Below, piece after piece: positions 8,804-27,045 of a stretch of DNA of 32,000 nt. The position numbers and the translations under genes were made by a program. Numbering within the stretch: the stretch's first letter is position 1; each line of letters begins with the position of its first letter. Source of the stretch: Candidatus Nanopusillus sp. (lineage in GTDB: Archaea; Nanobdellota; Nanobdellia; Nanobdellales; Nanobdellaceae); assembly GCA_028275885.1 (NCBI GenBank), contig JAPWTW010000005.1:30001-62000 (forward strand). The letters are read 5' to 3'. A model generated the notes under the pieces. It did not search any database, was not told where the DNA came from, and was given only the letters and a program-made list of their open reading frames with translations.

Positions 8804-8876
8804 TATTATATTTATTTTAATTTTTTCCTTAAAAATCTATATTTCTTTTTAAATCTTACTAATATATTATTAATAA

Positions 8877-9239
8877 ATGCCAAATGATTGGTCATATTTA
8901 GTAGAATTACAGAAAAACAAACCAGGTACTTTGGCAAAGATACTTAAAAATAATGCACCAAAATACATAAAAGAAGAAGTAAGAAGATTAATCAAAGAGG
9001 GAAAGATTAAAAATATACAAGAATTAATACAAAAGGCTGTAAATGAGAATAAAAGTCTAATAAAAGTATTAGAAGAATATGGAATTAAAAACAAGGAAAG
9101 AAAATTTGGAAAAGGAAGTATAAGGTGTATAATATGTGGTTCTCATGATAGAGTTATTAAAAGATATAAAATATATATATGTGGAAGGTGTTTTAGGGAA
9201 ATGGCAAAAGAATTAGGATTTAAAGTTCTTGGAGAATAA
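8877..9239 (+). CDS. rps14: Ribosomal protein uS14 (zinc-ribbon type) with a roughly 70-aa N-terminal extension.
   Basis: The C-terminal 50 aa, KERKFGKGSIRCIICGSHDRVIKRYKIYICGRCFREMAKELGFKVLGE, are a complete archaeal uS14. The preceding 70 codons are in the same open frame, with no ATG/GTG/TTG start close to the uS14 core. Confidence 0.85.
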   Translation: MPNDWSYLVELQKNKPGTLAKILKNNAPKYIKEEVRRLIKEGKIKNIQELIQKAVNENKSLIKVLEEYGIKNKERKFGKGSIRCIICGSHDRVIKRYKIYICGRCFREMAKELGFKVLGE

Positions 9240-9613
9240 TGGTAGATATAATTAATGATTTCTTTTCTCATGCTACAAATTGTATAAATGTTGGAAGAAG
9301 AGTAGTAGAATTTAATTATTATAATAAATTATTATTGAATATTTTGGAAAAATTAAAAGAATATAAATATATTGAGGGATATAAAACAGAGGGGAAAAAG
9401 ATAGTTGCTATATTTTCAGAATATTTTAATTTTGGAAAGGCAATTCACCCTAGGTTTCCTGTATCATATAGAGAACTAGAAAAGTATGAAAAAAGATATT
9501 TACCTGCAAGTGGTTTTGGGATATTGTTAGTATCTACTAATAAAGGAGTTAAAACAAATGAGGAATGTAAAAGAGAAAAAATAGGCGGGGTTCTAGTTGC
9601 TGTTGTTTATTAA
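9239..9613 (+). CDS. rps8: Ribosomal protein uS8.
   Basis: 124 aa with the motifs NILEKLKEYKYIEGY, LPASGFGILLVSTNKGV and GGVLVAVVY. The ATG overlaps the uS14 TAA (TAATG). Confidence 0.9.
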   Translation: MVDIINDFFSHATNCINVGRRVVEFNYYNKLLLNILEKLKEYKYIEGYKTEGKKIVAIFSEYFNFGKAIHPRFPVSYRELEKYEKRYLPASGFGILLVSTNKGVKTNEECKREKIGGVLVAVVY

Positions 9614-9861
9614 AGTTTTTTCAAATATTCTTCTAATTTTTCCTTTAATTCCTTATTATTTATTATAGATTCTATTTCTGATAATTTTCCTTCTATAGAT
9701 AATAATTTTCTATATAATATACCTAAAGCAATCCATATTTGTACTTTTGAAGGATTATCAGAATTTTCATATATATTTTTATACTTTTTTGTTTCTTCTA
9801 TTAATGATTTTATAAAATCCCTAAATACAGGATCTAAGTTATCTTTCCAATCAGAGGCCAT
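9610..9861 (-). CDS. Hypothetical small helical protein (83 aa), probably co-transcribed with uL18.
   Basis: The ORF overlaps the uL18 3' end by 11 nt. Its stop overlaps the uS8 stop on the opposite strand. No family was recognised. Confidence 0.5.
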
Positions 9862-10447
9862 ATTCTTTTAATATTTTATTTTTTACTTCTTCAAAATGTT
9901 CTACTATTTTTTCAGGTTCTAATCCAACTTTTAAATATCTTGAAAACTGTCTTTTATATTTTTCAGGATCTTCTTCTTTTAACATTAATGCATAATTTTT
10001 TATATGTTCCCCTCTTATTCTATCTTCAGAAGGCAAAATTTCTTTACTATGTGGTATTTTTAATCCAGCATCAACTGCTCCTTTTAATGCTGCATATAAA
10101 GAATTTCCTTTTGTTGATCTATATCTTCCAATATCTAATATTGCTTCTTCAATTCCTCTTTTCTTTGCTTCTAAACCTGCTAATAAACCAACTAAGTATG
10201 CTGTTGGTAAATTTCCTCTATGACCTTTCCATCCATATTTCTTTTCTAATATTTTTGAATGTATTGTGAATAATGTTTTATCTCCATTTTCATTATATAA
10301 TGTTATTTGTGCTAATATATTATTTAAAAATCTTCTAACAACAAATCTTGGTTTTTTTGATTTTAATAACTTTAACCTCTTTCTATAATCTGTAATATTT
10401 TTCCTTCTTCTTCTAAATTTTACTATGTAAGTAGGACCTGTAGCCAT
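9851..10447 (-). CDS. rpl18: Ribosomal protein uL18 (L5e family).
   Basis: The N-terminus [39 protein letters not shown] is typical of archaeal uL18. 198 aa. Confidence 0.9.
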
Positions 10448-10717
10448 TAAGATATTTTTATAAGTAATTTTTTAAATTTAATTTAATTTAAATATTTAAA
10501 TTCATTTATGATTTTTATATAATATTTGCTTTTTCTTTGTAAAGATTTCAAAAACTTTTTATCTTTATATATTGTGACAATTTTTATTATCTAAAATTTC
10601 AATAGTTTCTTCAGTAAAATTAAGATTTTTATCAATATCTGTTTTAAAGGTTGCTTTAAAATGATCAACTATAAAATATAAATAATTGTAAATTTATTTA
10701 GTAATTTAAATTAAATC

Positions 10718-10801
10718 CGCCGCGGGTGGGATTTGAACCCACGCCCCCTTTCGGGGATATGGTCTCCAGCCATACCCCTTGGTCCGCTCGGGCACCGCGG
10801 C
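10718..10801 (-). tRNA. tRNA-Ser (anticodon GGA), class II with a long variable arm. No intron and no encoded CCA.
   Basis: The reverse complement reads GCCGCGG TG CCC GAGCGGACCAA GGG G TATGG CTGGAGA CCATA TCCCCGAAAGGGGGC GTGGG TTCAAAT CCCAC CCGCGGC G. All stems pair. Coordinates are +/-1. Confidence 0.9.
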
Positions 10802-10806
10802 ATAAA

Positions 10807-10866
10807 TGTCCCCCGCCCATCGTTACCAATATTCATTTTTTCATATTGGTTCGTCTAAGCGGGGAT
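10807..10866 (-). ncRNA. Candidate single-hairpin box H/ACA guide sRNA.
   Basis: Minus strand: AUCCCCGCUU-AGACGAA-CCAAUAU-GAAAAAAUGA-AUAUUGG-UAACGAU-GGGCGGGGG-ACA. This gives a 9-bp lower stem, a 7+7 nt pocket, a 7-bp upper stem and a GA...GA K-loop-like cap. ACA lies immediately 3' of the lower stem. The segment is a GC-rich island. Confidence 0.55.
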
Positions 10867-10901
10867 ACATATTTAATATAATTTAATATAAAAATATTTT
10901 T

Positions 10902-11834
10902 ATGTTAAAAAGAAATTTATTGGAAAGAATAAATCAAAAAATAAATCAAATAAAAAGAGGTGAAGAAAATTATGAGGAAGAAAAAATTAATATTGAAAAA
11001 TTAGATTTAGATAATTTTGAAGTAAAAGAAAAGAAAAAATATGGATTTATAGATTCTTCCCATGTAAATGGAATTGTTGGACCTTACAGTTATATATATT
11101 CAAGAGCAGTAATTGTTTCTGATGATATATATGAAAGTATAGAGGATATAGAATTTTTTGAAACATCTTTTATAAGATCAATAAATAATGAAAATTTTGA
11201 TATTCAAGATATTTCAGAATTAATATCAAAAAATCTAGAATATAAATTGGCGAGAAAATATTCTGATAGATATGTATTTATAGATGGATCAATAATATCA
11301 GATTCTATATTATATTCAAAGTTTCTGTATAATTTTTATAATGAGAATATTGAAAATAGGAGAAAAGAATTTTTAGAAAATTTTGAATATTTAATAAATA
11401 ATGGAAATTTGTTGGCAGTTGCAAAAAGAATATTAAATTTAGATATAATAAAGCCAGGTAGATCAGATTTATTAACATTGATGAAAGTTTTTCCATCAGA
11501 AATATTTTATACAGATATTAAAGAAAAACAATTAAAAGAATTTTTAGGTTTTAAAATTCCAAACTGTTCATTTTGTAACAAAAATATATATATAATATAT
11601 TTCAGAGCTAGGTATAATGATCATATATATAGATTGGAAGGAATGGAGAAAATTGGAAAAGAAAAGTTCAAAGAAATAATAAAAGAAATTATTTATGATC
11701 AAAAATCTTATCCTAAAGGGTTAAAATTGGCCCACAACTTATGTAAAATAATAAATAAAGAAAAGTTATTATTAGAAAGTTATATTAAGAAAATTTTAGG
11801 ATTTGAAAAAACTGTTGGTTGGGAAACTCATTAG
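10902..11834 (+). CDS. nurA: NurA-like 5'-3' nuclease domain protein.
   Basis: It has the pair of acidic motifs YGFIDSS and VFIDGSIISD, then LLAVAKR (similar to the 'gvsK' motif) and the C-terminal YPKGLKLAHNLCKI, all characteristic of NurA. Assignment is by eye. Confidence 0.5.
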   Translation: MLKRNLLERINQKINQIKRGEENYEEEKINIEKLDLDNFEVKEKKKYGFIDSSHVNGIVGPYSYIYSRAVIVSDDIYESIEDIEFFETSFIRSINNENFDIQDISELISKNLEYKLARKYSDRYVFIDGSIISDSILYSKFLYNFYNENIENRRKEFLENFEYLINNGNLLAVAKRILNLDIIKPGRSDLLTLMKVFPSEIFYTDIKEKQLKEFLGFKIPNCSFCNKNIYIIYFRARYNDHIYRLEGMEKIGKEKFKEIIKEIIYDQKSYPKGLKLAHNLCKIINKEKLLLESYIKKILGFEKTVGWETH

Positions 11835-11907
11835 GGTCCGGGGCGGGATTTGAACCCGCGATCTTCGGGTCCACAGCCCGACGCCTTACCACTAGGCTAC
11901 CCGGACC
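11835..11907 (-). tRNA. tRNA-His (anticodon GUG) with a genome-encoded G-1.
   Basis: The reverse complement reads G(-1) GTCCGGG TA GCCT AGTGGTA AGGC G TCGGG CTGTGGA CCCGA AGATC GCGGG TTCAAAT CCCGC CCCGGAC C. G-1 can pair with C73. The 3' end abuts the TAG (11832-11834) of the convergent nurA-like ORF. Confidence 0.9.
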
Positions 11908-18477: not shown

Positions 18478-21400
18478 ATGAACGATAGAGAGTTTATAAA
18501 TGATTTTTCTAATGAAAAAAAAGAAAAAGAGATTGTTTTAGGACAAAAAAATTATAAAATAAAAAAAGTTATTAAAAGAGACGGAAGAATTGTAGATTTT
18601 GATCCTGAAAGAATAAAATATGCTGTGGAGAGAGCAATGAAAGCTGTTGGTGCTTATGATAAAGAAAAGTTGGAAAAAGTTGTTGATTATGTAATAAAAG
18701 TATTAGAAGAAAAATATGATAATATAAAATATCCGACTGTTGAAGAGATTCAGGATATTGTTGAATTATCCTTATTGAAATTTGATTTATATGATGTTGC
18801 TAAGGCATATATTTCTTATAGGAAAGAAAAAGAAAAAATAAGAGAAGAAAAGAAAAATTTATTAGGAAGATTCTATGAAGAGGAAGTTGCAAAAAGATTT
18901 TCTATTAATTCAATTAGATTAATGGTAAATAGATATTTATTAAGAAATGAAAATAAAGAATTAATAGAAGGTCCAAAACAAATGTTTGAAAGGGTAGCAG
19001 CATTAATTGTAATACCAGATTTATTGTATGATGAAAGAGTATATGATAAAGAAGGAAAACAAAAAATACATCCAAAAGAAGAATTTGATTTTGAAAAAAA
19101 TGAGAATAAATATGGATTACCAATAAAAGATCCAAAGTTTAGGTGGAATAGATATCATTTAGAAAGAATGAAATATTTGTATGATTATTTAAATGAAAGG
19201 GGTCATATGAAAGTTTCATGGTCAGAATTTATAAAAATGTTAGAAAATGGAGAATTTGACAAATATTACGAGAATTTCTATCAATATTATGATTTAATGG
19301 CAAGTAAAAGATTTATGCCAAATTCCCCCACATTATTTAATGCAGGTGCAGTTTTAGGACAATTATCTGCATGTTTTGTATTAGATATTGATGATAATAT
19401 GGAATCAATAATGAAATCAGCAACAGAAGCAGCTTTAATATTTAAATCTGGTGGTGGAATTGGTATAAACTATTCAAAACTAAGACCTGAGGGTGATGTT
19501 GTTGCATCTACAGGAGGTGTTGCCTCAGGTCCTGTTTCATTTATGAAAATCATAGATACAGTTACGGATGTAGTAAAACAGGGAGGAAAAAGAAGAGGGG
19601 CAAATATGGGAATTTTAGAATCTTGGCATCCTGAAATATTTAAATTTATTCATTTGAAAGAAAAAGAAGGTGTATTAGAAAACTTTAATATATCTATAAT
19701 GTTCGAACCATCTTTTTGGGAATATTTTGAAAATAAAAAAGAATATCCATTAATCAATCCAAGGTTATTAAGGAAATATAATTTACCTTTGCCAGGGGAT
19801 CCAAATTTTGATATAAATAAAATACCAAAAGAATCAATTACAGGATATGTAAATCCTGAAAGAATATTACAAGAAGCATCATATGTTGCATGGGAAAAAG
19901 GAGATCCTGGATGTCTATTTATGGATAATATAAATAGAAGAAATGTTCAATATAAATATAGAGGGCCAATTAGAGCTACTAACCCATGTGTAACTGGAGA
20001 TATAAGAATTTTAACACCATACGGTCTTTTAAGGGCTGAGACTTTACTTTATTTAAACAATGAAAATGGTAGTGATATCAATAATATAAAACTTTTAGTA
20101 GATGGAGAAGAAGAAATTTTATATACAACTGTTTATGGAAAAACATTGAGCGTAAGTTCTCCAATATTAGTTGATGCAAAAGTTTGGAAAGTTGGATTCA
20201 AACCAACTGTTAAATTAATTTTGGAAAATGGAATGGAGATTGAAGTAACTGAAGATCATAAGATACTTACAAAAGATGGATGGATAGAAGCAAAATATGC
20301 TGAAGGAAAAGAAGTAAAAATAGCAAGAATTGATATTGATAAGATAGAAAATTATGGATTAAAGGAAATTGATGGAATAAAACTAGATAGAGAATTAGGA
20401 TTTTTATTAGGATGGTTAGTTGGTGATGGATATGTTGGAGAAAAAGTTTTCTTCTACTTTAATGCTAAAACTGAGAGAGAAGTTTCTGAATATGTAAAAG
20501 AGTTGCTTGAAAAGAAATTTGGAGTAAATGTTAGCAGATTTGAAAGAAATAATGAAATATGGATTTATGTGAGTAAGAAAGAGGTTGTTGATATTTTCAA
20601 AAAACTAATGAGAAAGAAAACCAGTTTACCAGAAATTGTTTTCCTAGCAAACTCAGAATTTGTTAAAGGATTTTTGAATGGTTTATTCTCAGCAGATGGA
20701 TATATTGATAAAGATGGAGCAATAAGATTAACCTCATCTAATAAAGATTTATTGAAAGAAGTACAACTTTTGCTAACTTTATTTGGTATATTTTCAAAGA
20801 TTTATGAAAGACCTTATAAGAGAAAATTTGAGTATATTACTGTAAATGGTGAAAAGAGAGAATATGAAGCTAATGGATATTATGAACTTATAATCAAAAA
20901 TTATAGTAGAAAAATTTTTGAAGAAAAGATAAAATTGGTAGATTATAAAAATGAAAAGCTCTTAGAAAGACTAAAGAAAAATAAAATTGATAATAATTAT
21001 GTTAAGATTGTGAGAGTAGAATACGTTGGTGAAAAAATGGTTTATGACTTTAGTGTTCCTGGATTTAATAGATATATTTCTAATGGAATAATAAGTCATA
21101 ATTGTGGTGAACAGCCTCTATATCCATATGAATCTTGTAATTTAGGATCAATCAATCTATATGCTTTGGTTGAATTTAAAGATGGAAAGGCAGAATTTAA
21201 TTGGGATAAATATATTGAAACAATAAAATGGGCATATAGATTTTTAGATAATGTAATAGATGTAAATAAATATCCAATAAAGGAAATTGAAGAAGCATCA
21301 AAAGCAGTAAGAAGGATTGGTTTAGGATTTATGGGACTGGCAGATATGTTTTATGCATTGAGAATTCCATATTCGTCAGAAGAGGGATATAAGTTATTGA

Positions 21401-22380
21401 TGAAAATAACAGAATATTTAACGTATTATTCAATGTTAGAATCTGTTGAAAGGGCAAAAACAAGGGGTAAATTCGATAGATACGATCAAACAACATACAA
21501 AGATGGTGAATTACCTATAGAAGGATATTATCATAAAGAATTATGGACATTAGATTGGGAATATTTGAAAGAACAAATAATGAAATATGGAATAAGAAAT
21601 GTTGAAGTTACATCAATTGCCCCTACTGGTTCAATATCAATGTTAGCAGATACTTCTTCGGGTATTGAACCACAATATTCATTAGTATATGAAAAAAGAG
21701 TAACTGCTGGTGTATATTACTATGTAGATCTAGAATTGGAAAGACAATTGAGAGAAAGAGGATTATATAATAATGAGATATTAAAGAAAATATCTGATAA
21801 TGGTGGAAGTTTATTGGGAATAAAAGAAATTCCAGATGATTTAAAAGCAGTATTTTTAACAGCATTAGATATACCATGGTGGGATCATATAAGAGCACAG
21901 GCAGTTGCTCAAATATGGATAACTACATCAATATCAAAAACAATAAATATGCCAAATTGGGTTCAGCCAGACGATGTATATTATTCATATTTATTAGCAT
22001 ATAAGATGGGATGTAAAGGAATTACAATATATAGAGATGGATCAAAATCTGCACAAGTATATGTAGCTCCTGCTGAAGCAAGTAAAGCAAGAATGATGGA
22101 TTACTTTAGATTAGTTAAGGAAGGAAAAATAAATAATAGAACAGTTGAAATATTAAAACAATATGGAATAAAGTTACCAAACTGGTATTATGAATTAAAT
22201 AACAATGTTGAGATACCAAAAGTAAAATTGAATGTAAACATTAATAATACATTGAGAGTTGAAGAAAATGGAAATAATAAAATTGAAAAATGTCCTGTAT
22301 GCGGATCTACAAGGTTAAAACATGAGGCTGGTTGTGTTGTATGTATGGATTGTGGATGGTCAGAATGTATAATTGCTTAA
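18478..22380 (+). CDS. nrdJ: Ribonucleoside-diphosphate/triphosphate reductase, class II (adenosylcobalamin-type, NrdJ-like), with an N-terminal ATP-cone and one intein.
   Basis: ATP-cone: VIKRDGRIVDFDPERIKYAVERA. PNSPTLFNAG is present. The thiyl-radical motif TNP|C..GEQ is interrupted by an intein. ESCNLGSINL follows, and the tail is KCPVCGS...CVVCMDCG. The extein is 928 aa. The class call is by eye. Confidence 0.85.
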   Translation: MNDREFINDFSNEKKEKEIVLGQKNYKIKKVIKRDGRIVDFDPERIKYAVERAMKAVGAYDKEKLEKVVDYVIKVLEEKYDNIKYPTVEEIQDIVELSLLKFDLYDVAKAYISYRKEKEKIREEKKNLLGRFYEEEVAKRFSINSIRLMVNRYLLRNENKELIEGPKQMFERVAALIVIPDLLYDERVYDKEGKQKIHPKEEFDFEKNENKYGLPIKDPKFRWNRYHLERMKYLYDYLNERGHMKVSWSEFIKMLENGEFDKYYENFYQYYDLMASKRFMPNSPTLFNAGAVLGQLSACFVLDIDDNMESIMKSATEAALIFKSGGGIGINYSKLRPEGDVVASTGGVASGPVSFMKIIDTVTDVVKQGGKRRGANMGILESWHPEIFKFIHLKEKEGVLENFNISIMFEPSFWEYFENKKEYPLINPRLLRKYNLPLPGDPNFDINKIPKESITGYVNPERILQEASYVAWEKGDPGCLFMDNINRRNVQYKYRGPIRATNPCVTGDIRILTPYGLLRAETLLYLNNENGSDINNIKLLVDGEEEILYTTVYGKTLSVSSPILVDAKVWKVGFKPTVKLILENGMEIEVTEDHKILTKDGWIEAKYAEGKEVKIARIDIDKIENYGLKEIDGIKLDRELGFLLGWLVGDGYVGEKVFFYFNAKTEREVSEYVKELLEKKFGVNVSRFERNNEIWIYVSKKEVVDIFKKLMRKKTSLPEIVFLANSEFVKGFLNGLFSADGYIDKDGAIRLTSSNKDLLKEVQLLLTLFGIFSKIYERPYKRKFEYITVNGEKREYEANGYYELIIKNYSRKIFEEKIKLVDYKNEKLLERLKKNKIDNNYVKIVRVEYVGEKMVYDFSVPGFNRYISNGIISHNCGEQPLYPYESCNLGSINLYALVEFKDGKAEFNWDKYIETIKWAYRFLDNVIDVNKYPIKEIEEASKAVRRIGLGFMGLADMFYALRIPYSSEEGYKLLMKITEYLTYYSMLESVERAKTRGKFDRYDQTTYKDGELPIEGYYHKELWTLDWEYLKEQIMKYGIRNVEVTSIAPTGSISMLADTSSGIEPQYSLVYEKRVTAGVYYYVDLELERQLRERGLYNNEILKKISDNGGSLLGIKEIPDDLKAVFLTALDIPWWDHIRAQAVAQIWITTSISKTINMPNWVQPDDVYYSYLLAYKMGCKGITIYRDGSKSAQVYVAPAEASKARMMDYFRLVKEGKINNRTVEILKQYGIKLPNWYYELNNNVEIPKVKLNVNINNTLRVEENGNNKIEKCPVCGSTRLKHEAGCVVCMDCGWSECIIA
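19987..21102 (+). mobile_element. Intein (372 aa) with a LAGLIDADG homing-endonuclease domain, inserted in the RNR active-site motif.
   Basis: It starts with Cys (CVTGDIRILT, block A). Block B is VTEDHKILT. The two LAGLIDADG motifs are LGFLLGWLVGDGYV and VKGFLNGLFSADGYI. It ends ...GIISHN, followed by the +1 Cys of CGEQPLY. The flanks rejoin to TNP-CGEQ. Confidence 0.85.
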
Positions 22381-26007: not shown

Positions 26008-26265
26008 AATTATAATTTTTAATTGTAAATCTTGTAAAGTAGATTCTTTGAAACAAACTATTATGGAAAATTCGAAGGAAAATGTAAAATTTGGCATTTA
26101 TAATTGATGTAAAGTAAGAGAAGGTGATTCTTCTGAAAAGGAGCTCTATCAATGCCATTATAAGGGATAGTTTGTAAAAAACATATTGAGTCTAAATTGG
26201 TAATAATTGAAAGTTCATCAATAGAAAAAGTCAAAGACCCTCTTAAGAGAAAAACTTTATGAAGA

Positions 26266-26436
26266 ATGGAGAAAGGAGGTGGTCATCCTGATTTTGTTTG
26301 GACGATGCAATATTTTGAAAATTTTGAAATGAAGGAGAGAGGAAAGAGAAAAATTAAACTAAAAATAGAGAAATTACTCTATATGACAAATCTTCAGAAA
26401 AATTTACTAAAGAGAAAATATCTTCTAAAGATGTAG
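26266..26436 (+). pseudogene. 56-codon ORF that overlaps a second, start-less open frame ending in two hydrophobic helices. Either a frameshifted gene remnant or a recoded small membrane protein.
   Basis: The ATG at 26266 gives MEKGGGHPDFVWTMQYFENFEMKERGKRKIKLKIEKLLYMTNLQKNLLKRKYLLKM, with a stop at 26434-26436. The -1 frame is open from 26358 to 26564: ...KEKISSKDVAVVLVLLLYLFLILLNYLTAVHYTMIFPFIIIVLGLIIVILR. No ATG lies near its 5' end. Confidence 0.3.
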
Positions 26437-27045
26437 CAGTTGTATTAGTACTGCTCTTATATCTTTTCTTAATCTTATTAAATTATCTTACAGCTGTACA
26501 TTATACCATGATATTTCCTTTTATTATTATTGTTTTAGGTCTTATAATTGTAATTCTTAGATAGTTACTTACTAAATTTTGATGGTTTTATCATTTGAGA
26601 TATTAGTAAATATAAATTTAGTTATGGAAAGGAAAAGATAAAAATAACAATTACCTTTATTGTAGACTAATTTTTTTCATCTTATATTTTCTGTTATAAA
26701 AAGATTATAACTTCCTATAAAGGAGAAATTCAAGATATTATCATGGTGTGTTTATAGTTTTGTTTTGAATTCAAAGTAATTAGAAGTTATTTCAATTTAA
26801 TTTGGATCAATTGATGAATTTGCTAAAACTTTATGCAAATAATTTATCATAAAACTAAGCATTTAAAAAATTACTGAAATTCTGAAGATTTTTAATTATT
26901 GGTTTGTAAATAGAATTTTTTCATTAATTTATATAAATACTAAATTTACGCTCTAGATTTATCATTTAAATTTGGTGTTTTTTATATATTATATTTTTAT
27001 ATTTTATCTTAATATTTTTATAAAATATAAATAAAGAAAAAATTT

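Follow-up and report, generated by a model that had tools for sequence, protein, structure and literature searches.

H/ACA guide RNAs, kink-loops (K-loops) and co-transcripts of a guide RNA with a tRNA are all established. According to Toffano-Nioche et al. (PMC4652768), productive archaeal guides have a 10-layer 'GA stem' that runs from the closing pair to the second G.A pair. Their 3' guide strand measures 5-6 nt and their lower stem 7-9 bp, and the ACA box follows the closing pair at 14-15 nt, with 16 nt as the upper limit. Nanoarchaeum equitans carries a 159-nt H/ACA small RNA (sRNA) that is abundant and has its own box A promoter and a T-stretch (PMC3491384). Here we analyze a stretch of 32,000 nt of Candidatus Nanopusillus sp. 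(assembly GCA_028275885.1, contig JAPWTW010000005.1, forward strand, positions 30,001-62,000), called the window below, and one element within it, at positions 10807-10866 on the minus strand. We conclude that this element is very probably a real and conserved gene of the Nanopusillaceae for a canonical, single-hairpin archaeal H/ACA guide RNA. The hairpin belongs to a kind already well known in archaea.

Structure of the element

Read from the minus strand (10866 to 10807), the element consists of A, UCCCCGCUU, AGACGAA, CCAAUAU, GAAAAAAUGA, AUAUUGG, UAACGAU, GGGCGGGGG and ACA. This is letter for letter the sequence quoted in the original prediction, which had proposed an H/ACA guide RNA just upstream of tRNA-Ser. 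The parts of the element are:

10807-10866, minus strand: single-hairpin H/ACA box sRNA gene (hairpin plus ACA), from sequence, fold, covariation and descriptor match
10857-10865, minus strand: 5' strand of the lower stem, UCCCCGCUU; 9 bp, three of them U.G, with partner 10810-10818
10851-10856, minus strand: 5' guide strand of the pocket, AGACGA (the AGACGAA segment above is 10856-10850)
10843-10850, minus strand: 5' strand of the upper stem, ACCAAUAU; 8 bp with 10825-10832
10833-10842, minus strand: K-loop, GAAAAAAUGA; 5' GA and 3' GA, with tandem sheared G.A pairs possible
10819-10824, minus strand: 3' guide strand of the pocket, AACGAU
10810-10818, minus strand: 3' strand of the lower stem, GGGCGGGGG, from fold and covariation
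10807-10809, minus strand: ACA box, downstream of the upper stem at 15 nt from its closing pair

The 60-mer folds with RNAfold to a minimum free energy (MFE) of -26.7 kcal/mol. Shuffled sequences averaged -11.8 kcal/mol (standard deviation 2.7; z = -5.52), and none of 200 was as stable. Both stems are recovered in the MFE structure, including the predicted 9-bp lower stem with its six G-C and three G-U pairs, and there are a few pairs within the pocket. The original prediction had also described a 7+7 internal loop and a 7-bp upper stem. That stem is recovered, and an extra A-U pair (10850/10825) closes it above the pocket, giving a 6+6 pocket and an 8-bp upper stem.

These dimensions agree with those of productive guides. 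The 6+6 pocket, above a 9-bp lower stem, lies within the range for internal loops (5-8 nt on the 5' side and 5-6 nt on the 3' side), eight base pairs plus G.A and A.G add up to 10 layers at the level of sequence, and the 15 nt to ACA lie within the range of 14-16 nt. By its predicted fold, the hairpin is of the '10/6/9' type, subfamily 66, of productive archaeal guides. We searched both strands of the window with a descriptor for K-loop H/ACA RNAs (a pocket flanked by stems of 7 bp or more, GA...GA, and ACA 14-16 nt from the upper stem). The sole match was this locus, and there were no matches in 100 dinucleotide-preserving shuffles. The G+C content across the window is 19-30%. Outside coding sequence, the islands above 50% G+C are five tRNAs and this element, with no others; the original prediction had likewise described a GC-rich island like the tRNAs.

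Conservation in relatives

The element lies beside a gene on the opposite strand:

10902-11834, plus strand: nurA, divergent from the candidate guide RNA gene

Using NurA homologs as anchors, we fetched the corresponding loci from eight distinct lineages, down to 45% NurA identity and including Nanobdella aerobiophila and strain YN1. All of the NurA homologs are from Nanoarchaeota of the family Nanopusillaceae, with identities of 89-96% for hot-spring metagenomes, 63% for YN1, 58% for Nanobdella aerobiophila and 52% for a metagenome-assembled genome (MAG) of the Nanopusillaceae. The window's NurA clusters at 90% identity with Nst1_193, from Candidatus Nanobsidianus stetteri, and with proteins of several Candidatus Nanopusillus MAGs. 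Because of these identities and this cluster, we take the host to be a terrestrial nanoarchaeon and not N. equitans.

In all eight lineages the element is present on the strand opposite nurA, 33-50 nt from the nurA start codon. A covariance model (R1) was built from the alignment of the eight homologs, and the sequences were realigned to it; the model scores 10807-10866 at 88.8 bits. Standard pairs occupy 96.3% of cells, and in five of the 17 pairs (8 cells) both partners have changed. In 500 column shuffles neither the observed paired fraction nor the covariation score was ever reached, and sliding the 3' partners by 1-3 columns lowered pairing to 34-54%. RNAalifold arrives independently at the same structure. 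An alignment in related nanoarchaea had been proposed as a check of the original prediction, and it supports the prediction: the stems, the K-loop and ACA are kept. The lower stem has compensatory changes from C-G to U-A and from C-G to G-C (pairs 7/56 and 9/53), and three pairs of the upper stem change from A-U to G-C in relatives. Examples are given below; numbers beginning with L are our handles for loci.

Lower stem, window: CCCCGCUU/GGGCGGGG
Lower stem, Nanobdella: CCCUGUCUU/AAGACAGGG
Lower stem, L143: CCCCGGUU/GGCCGGGG
Lower stem, YN1: CCCCGUUU/GGACGGGG
Upper stem, window: CCAAUAU/AUAUUGG
Upper stem, L145: CCGGUGU/ACACCGG
Upper stem, L004: CCAAUG/CAUUGG

The closing pair of the upper stem is A-U in seven relatives and G.U in one. 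At the other end of this stem, the pair beside the G.A pairs is U-A, U.G, U.U or A.A. Position 3b.3n of kink-turns (K-turns) is usually non-Watson-Crick, and the variable top pair fits that position. The GA...AUGA of the K-loop is invariant in the eight relatives and the interior of the loop is variable. ACA is likewise invariant and lies 14-16 nt from the closing pair in all of them.

The pocket is also conserved. Four of the six positions of the 5' guide strand, 2, 5 and 6 among them, and the CGA core of the 3' guide strand are invariant. The distance from CGAU(A) to ACA is a constant 9 nt in every lineage, with insertions and deletions on either side: UAA, UA or UAU above, and an extra A or U before ACA below. 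Each sequence has two or three U.G pairs, which would be A.C mismatches on the other strand; the RNA is therefore read from the minus strand. The covariance model found no further copies in the approximately 350 kb of DNA examined, including other DPANN loci, and the other matches that a relaxed descriptor gave in the same 350 kb all lie within coding sequence, at 10-23% G+C.

Candidate rRNA targets

The window itself contains no nanoarchaeal rRNA gene. To find rRNA of this lineage we used a specific 21-mer, derived from the quantitative PCR primer and the fluorescence in situ hybridization probe for Nanopusillus acidilobi (PMC4935971). A metagenome scan with this 21-mer gave 13 contigs, on which Rfam located a complete 23S gene about 6 kb from the 16S gene on two, and the 3' part of a 23S gene on a third. 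A simple check for 23S motifs had missed these genes because 'universal' motifs are altered in the Nanopusillus-type lineage. Both 16S and 23S rRNA were scanned for sites with 2-4 unpaired target bases, and the guide was allowed to leave up to three bases of its 3' strand and up to two of its 5' strand unused.

In Nanopusillus-type 16S and 23S, the top-scoring site for the window guide is U2560 of the 23S rRNA (coordinate 3974 of L130). The rRNA reads 5'-GCGAC AUCG A U G UCGUCU CUCC-3' at this site. CGAU of the 3' guide pairs with AUCG (E. coli 2499-2502) and AGACGA of the 5' guide pairs perfectly with UCGUCU (E. coli 2506-2511), for a total of ten Watson-Crick pairs (4+6). By alignment, U2560 corresponds to E. 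coli U2504. This uridine lies in the peptidyl transferase center, in its central loop, and in E. coli it is a natural pseudouridine made by RluC (PMC9074899). UCGUCU is present in all three Nanopusillus-type 23S sequences, whereas E. coli and five other DPANN 23S sequences have UCGGCU; an A in the guide matches the lineage-specific U. Guide and target seem to have evolved together with this uncommon change in the rRNA. In the Nanopusillus-type rRNA, the same site also ranks first for the guide variants of Nanobdella and L145. Opposite A2503 stands the one variable base of the 3' guide, which is A, U or missing; the U of Nanobdella would be expected to pair with A2503, leaving the canonical two-base spacer UG. 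The nominal target given in the original prediction, AUCGUUA-UN-UUCGUCU, is absent as written, and what stands of it is the best real site, AUCG-AUG-UCGUCU.

Several features weigh against U2560 as the target. Its 5' duplex has only 4-5 bp, and guide base A2 has no partner at the junction. The A of window-type guides opposite A2503 means either an n-1 mismatch or a 3-nt spacer, and both are anomalies that disfavor activity (PMC4652768). The guides of L142 and L143 carry A, not C, opposite G2508. Moreover, the score was reached by 3% of 300 dinucleotide-shuffled rRNAs (P ~0.03), which is modest. The site was read in the three Nanopusillus-type 23S sequences. Because the junction is non-canonical, we consider U2560 (E. 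coli U2504) a tentative assignment: judged by complementarity it could well be the target, and there is about an even chance that the target is another or unknown site. A second candidate, U1393 in helix 44 of 16S rRNA, has a canonical 6-bp 5' duplex and 3 bp on the other arm. One of those three pairs is lost in four of six 16S variants, and we regard this site as improbable.

Other searches gave no conserved site. Scans of E. coli rRNA, of a haloarchaeal plasmid operon (L008) and of six Woesearchaeota-type operons picked up nothing beyond A+U-rich variable regions, which were not conserved. The tRNAs and mRNAs of the window yielded only A+U-rich noise. A scan of a genome collection with TTGATCCTGCGGGAGG listed bacteria and mesophilic DPANN, with no Nanopusillaceae among the matches listed. 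Two Woesearchaeota-type 23S sequences (L009:5406 and L042:5555, near E. coli 1500) have a conserved GGAGUAUCGUUAUGAUGAGAAC that holds an exact AUCGUUA followed by UG; the downstream (3') arm is mismatched there and we judged the match to be chance. A site near 16S position 33 (AUCGCUA-UC-UCCCUCC) was ruled out by mismatches, and one near 23S position 100, which fits the L142 guide, is not conserved between two Nanopusillus 23S sequences and is probably chance. We also considered, and rejected on numbering, the equation of Pyrococcus abyssi psi2603 with E. coli U2504; our own reckoning from yeast and E. coli offsets favors U2511.

The rRNA genes have some unusual properties of their own. In the 23S sequences (L130:3900-4000, positions ~2490-2590; also L138 and L139), GGGUAACAGCGCCGUC stands where E. 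coli has GGAUAACAGGCUGAU, a departure from the near-universal sequence of the peptidyl transferase center, and GACAUCGAUGUC is a perfect palindrome. At the 3' end of the 16S gene (L130, L132, L135, L136, L138 and L139), ...GAACCUGCGGCUGGAUC is followed by UAGUUAAUUCC and not by the usual ACCUCC(U), so that the 16S gene apparently has lost its classical anti-Shine-Dalgarno tail or has another in its place. Lastly, the 16S and 23S genes are unlinked; they lie on opposite strands, and a stretch of about 6 kb with protein genes separates them:

L130:1415-4350, plus strand, and 10290-11783, minus strand: rRNA genes
L138:1412-2906, plus strand, and 8841-11775, minus strand: rRNA genes

Linkage to tRNA-Ser

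The element is flanked on one side by a tRNA gene and on the other by a short spacer:

10802-10806, minus strand: spacer UUUAU from ACA to G1 of the tRNA; 5 nt, no room for a promoter or terminator
10718-10801 (Rfam, 54.6 bits) or 10717-10802 (ARAGORN), minus strand: tRNA-Ser(GGA), likely second gene of the transcription unit
10867-10901: A+T spacer from the sRNA 5' end to the nurA ATG; 35 bp

UUUAU followed by G1 of tRNA-Ser(GGA) is what had been described from the sequence, and it is seen at 10806-10802. What follows ACA differs among the lineages:

Window and L003: 5 nt, then tRNA-Ser(GGA)
L004: 4 nt, then tRNA-Ser(GGA)
L142: 3 nt, then tRNA-Ser(GCU)
YN1: 1 nt, then tRNA-Ser(GGA); the L005 spacer is also 1 nt
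L143 and L145: no tRNA; an immediate T-run (UUUUAUUU and UUAUUUU)
Nanobdella: no tRNA

Because a tRNA-Ser follows ACA in five relatives and is absent from three, the element is an independent gene that has been fused to a tRNA gene in one clade. The copies that bear a tRNA have a T-run only downstream of the tRNA (TTTAATTT in the window). In L142 (1300-1390, minus strand; MAG GCA_049973735.1), the tRNA-Ser(GCU) that takes the place of tRNA-Ser(GGA) has an identical acceptor stem and a nearly identical D arm, which suggests an anticodon switch or a gene replacement at a conserved position.

On the minus strand, a TATA-like TTTTTATA is present at -28 to -21 from the hairpin (10887-10894), and a TATA-like box is found at about the same distance in L004, L005 and L006. 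This is weak evidence for a promoter because the entire 35-bp spacer is A+T. On the plus strand, the start codon of nurA is preceded by TATTTAAT at a distance of about 25-32 nt. Going by its letters, the spacer can hold two divergent TATA-like boxes, which would imply a leaderless nurA mRNA. The spacer also contains two copies of a direct repeat, TATATTAAAT.

Removal of a 5' leader from tRNA-Ser had seemed significant in the original prediction because N. equitans lacks RNase P. That significance falls away here. The window is not from N. equitans, and for Nst1 Podar et al. (PMC3655853) report, in explicit contrast with N. equitans, both the RNA and three of the proteins of RNase P; a later survey lists RPP21, RPP29, RPP30 and L7Ae for Nst1 (PMC4919917). 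Since Nst1 shares the 90% NurA cluster, leader removal presents no paradox.

Alternative explanations

It is scarcely credible that no RNA gene is involved and that the hairpin arose by chance, terminates transcription or regulates nurA. Such a role would suit its promoter-proximal, intergenic place, 35 nt from the nurA start codon. However, nurA is divergent, and therefore the hairpin cannot terminate it. Chance does not account for the stability of the fold (z = -5.5), for shuffles that give no descriptor matches, or for compensatory changes in both stems, and a role on the nurA strand would turn the U.G pairs into A.C mismatches and leave the invariant GA/GA and ACA unexplained. We also think it unlikely that the element is an H/ACA-shaped RNA that does not guide rRNA pseudouridylation. 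Such an RNA could be an orphan guide, a chaperone of ribosome assembly, or a K-loop that binds L7Ae for processing of tRNA-Ser; L7Ae doubles as an archaeal RNase P subunit (PMC4919917). No rRNA site satisfies every canonical pairing rule, and the 5' guide strand is variable in L142 and L143. On the other hand, conservation of the pocket equals or exceeds that of the stems, the distance to ACA stays at 14-16 nt through insertions and deletions, the element is kept without a tRNA in Nanobdella, L143 and L145, and the guide has a 10-bp, lineage-matched complement in the peptidyl transferase center. The database results count against a guide RNA. A scan with archaeal covariance models, proposed with the original prediction, did not bear it out: at gathering level Rfam found nothing but tRNAs, and at permissive thresholds the sole Rfam match was HgcG/Pab40 (RF00064), at 23.1 bits against a gathering score of 77. 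That alignment covers 10706-10920, the whole three-hairpin model, and is credible for hairpin 1 only. The element resembles motif 1 of HgcG/Pab40 and is not a member of RF00064. No cbf5, nop10, gar1 or L7Ae gene was found in the window, nor by tblastn in roughly 180 kb of related sequence; this says little, because these cover only the lesser part of the genome. The literature reports L7Ae for Nst1 (PMC4919917), a COG0130 synthase for N. equitans, and shared RNA-modification genes (PMC3655853). Taken together, the canonical geometry, the compensatory changes in the eight relatives and a plausible rRNA target uphold the original reading of the element as an H/ACA pseudouridylation guide.

How the guide RNA and tRNA-Ser are transcribed is a separate question. 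We think it probable that they form one two-gene precursor in the window genome and in four relatives. The sRNA and the tRNA could instead be two transcription units, with the tRNA-Ser promoter inside the sRNA gene, in the A+T-rich K-loop and 3' strand of the upper stem, and with the sRNA terminated or trimmed after ACA. In the window, AAAAAATGAATATT lies at -40 to -27 from G1 of the tRNA, and within it AATATT, at -32 to -27 in the A+T-rich K-loop and upper stem, tells against a single precursor. Furthermore, the tRNAs of N. equitans are leaderless, with promoters at a fixed distance (PMC3491384). Here, however, the distance from the A+T stretch to G1 shifts by 4 nt among relatives (spacers of 1-5 nt), the TATA box would be poor and its sequence constrained by the hairpin, the composition of the K-loop does not follow the presence of a tRNA, there is no T-run between the genes, and the lineage has RNase P. 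Two separate units are therefore rather unlikely. One transcript is favored because a tRNA promoter would have to lie inside the hairpin, in a poor A+T stretch that shifts among lineages.

Other features of the window

The archaeal neighbors of the element are genes for ribosomal proteins L18/L5e, S8 and S14 on one side and nurA on the other. Just beyond nurA and convergent with it lies tRNA-His (11834-11906, minus strand), which abuts the nurA stop codon with zero spacer; the genomic sequence includes the extra G-1 of this tRNA. The large subunit of ribonucleotide reductase (1300 aa; 18478-22380, plus strand) is split by an intein, in which Pfam recognizes Intein_splicing and LAGLIDADG_3 (homing-endonuclease) domains. 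After tRNA-Glu there is a stretch of about 950 nt (~26100-27045) without an open reading frame of at least 57 aa on either strand. It is rich in A+T and lacks both G+C islands and notable repeats. This stretch may represent decayed gene remnants or non-coding DNA, which would be unusual for so compact a genome.

Proposed mechanism and implications

Based on the known H/ACA family, we infer the following sequence of events. Transcription of the minus strand would start from the TATA-like box about 25 nt upstream. The RNA would fold into the 9-bp lower stem, the 6+6-nt pseudouridylation pocket and the 8-bp upper stem capped by the K-loop. L7Ae is then expected to bind the K-loop, and the lower stem together with ACA could serve as the docking site of Cbf5-Nop10-Gar1. 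The strands of the pocket would pair with rRNA on either side of a uridine, which Cbf5 would convert to pseudouridine. If the substrate is 23S U2560, CGAU would pair with A2499-G2502 and AGACGA with U2506-U2511. A cut by RNase P at the 5' end of the tRNA might free both RNAs, leaving the sRNA with ACA plus 1-5 nt.

We have also considered a more specific combination: that the ribonucleoprotein (RNP) modifies the RluC-equivalent U2504 through a pocket with a surplus base, co-adapted to the substitution G2509U, and that RNase P makes the 3' end of the sRNA. As a whole, this combination is doubtful.

The terrestrial Nanoarchaeota have genomes of about 0.6 Mb with no guide RNA annotated. The annotation of N. 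acidilobi lists 46 RNAs, of which 43 are tRNAs and three are others; this leaves no place for a guide RNA, and the guide RNA family appears to be unannotated. The covariance model R1 can be used for annotating it in genomes of the Nanopusillaceae. Retention of a guide despite genome reduction would suggest that the modification matters at 80 °C. In addition, the tight linkage of guide and tRNA offers a simple system in which to ask if RNase P matures the 3' end of a guide RNA. The element does not overturn current understanding, and it leaves the RNase P question of the original prediction untouched.

Comparison with known systems

Among described RNAs, the element has much in common with motif 1 of the Pyrococcus RNA known as Pab40, Pf7 or HgcG. 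Both have a G+C-rich lower stem of 8-9 bp, a pocket, an upper stem of 7-8 bp, a K-loop that ends in AAUGA, ACA, and a 3' guide with the core CGA. Pab40, however, has three hairpins with other pocket sequences, whereas the element here is a single hairpin. Motif 1 of Pab40 guides modification of position 2588 of P. abyssi 23S rRNA, in helix 89, and the predicted site of the element is different. We considered a common target and dropped it; the motif 1 target could not be located by complementarity in rRNAs other than those of Pyrococcus.

The sRNAs of the Afu46 and Pf9 type (crystallized RNPs 2HVY, 3HAX and 3LWO) are similar in architecture. They are single hairpins with a 10-layer GA stem, members of the '10/6/9' family (PMC4652768), in which the 3' guide has 5-6 nt, the lower stem has 9 bp and ACA stands at 14-15 nt from the closing pair. 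They have no sequence kinship with the element, and the pairing predicted for the element leaves an extra guide base at the junction.

The 159-nt sRNA of N. equitans (PMC3491384), located between NEQ389 and NEQ392, is that of an organism in the same phylum. It differs in having two hairpins joined by ACA and K-turn bulges within its stems, where the element has a K-loop. Its pockets are unrelated to that of the element and no tRNA adjoins it. With respect to the target, the bacterial enzyme RluC modifies the same nucleotide, 2504, that is predicted for the element. RluC is a stand-alone, protein-only synthase that uses no guide RNA, and its equivalence with the element's site rests on the prediction.

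The arrangement with tRNA-Ser is most like the tRNA-C/D sRNA units of N. equitans, Thermococcus kodakarensis and plants, in which a precursor that contains a guide and a tRNA is split by a tRNA-processing nuclease. In those units the tRNA precedes a guide of the C/D type, and the cut, at the tRNA 3' end, is made by RNase Z. In the unit described here the H/ACA guide is upstream of the tRNA, and its release is predicted to depend on RNase P. We met no description of such an H/ACA-first unit in a limited, non-exhaustive search of the literature. If our interpretation is correct, most Nanopusillaceae have a dicistron with the H/ACA guide first, the mirror image of the known tRNA-C/D sRNA units.

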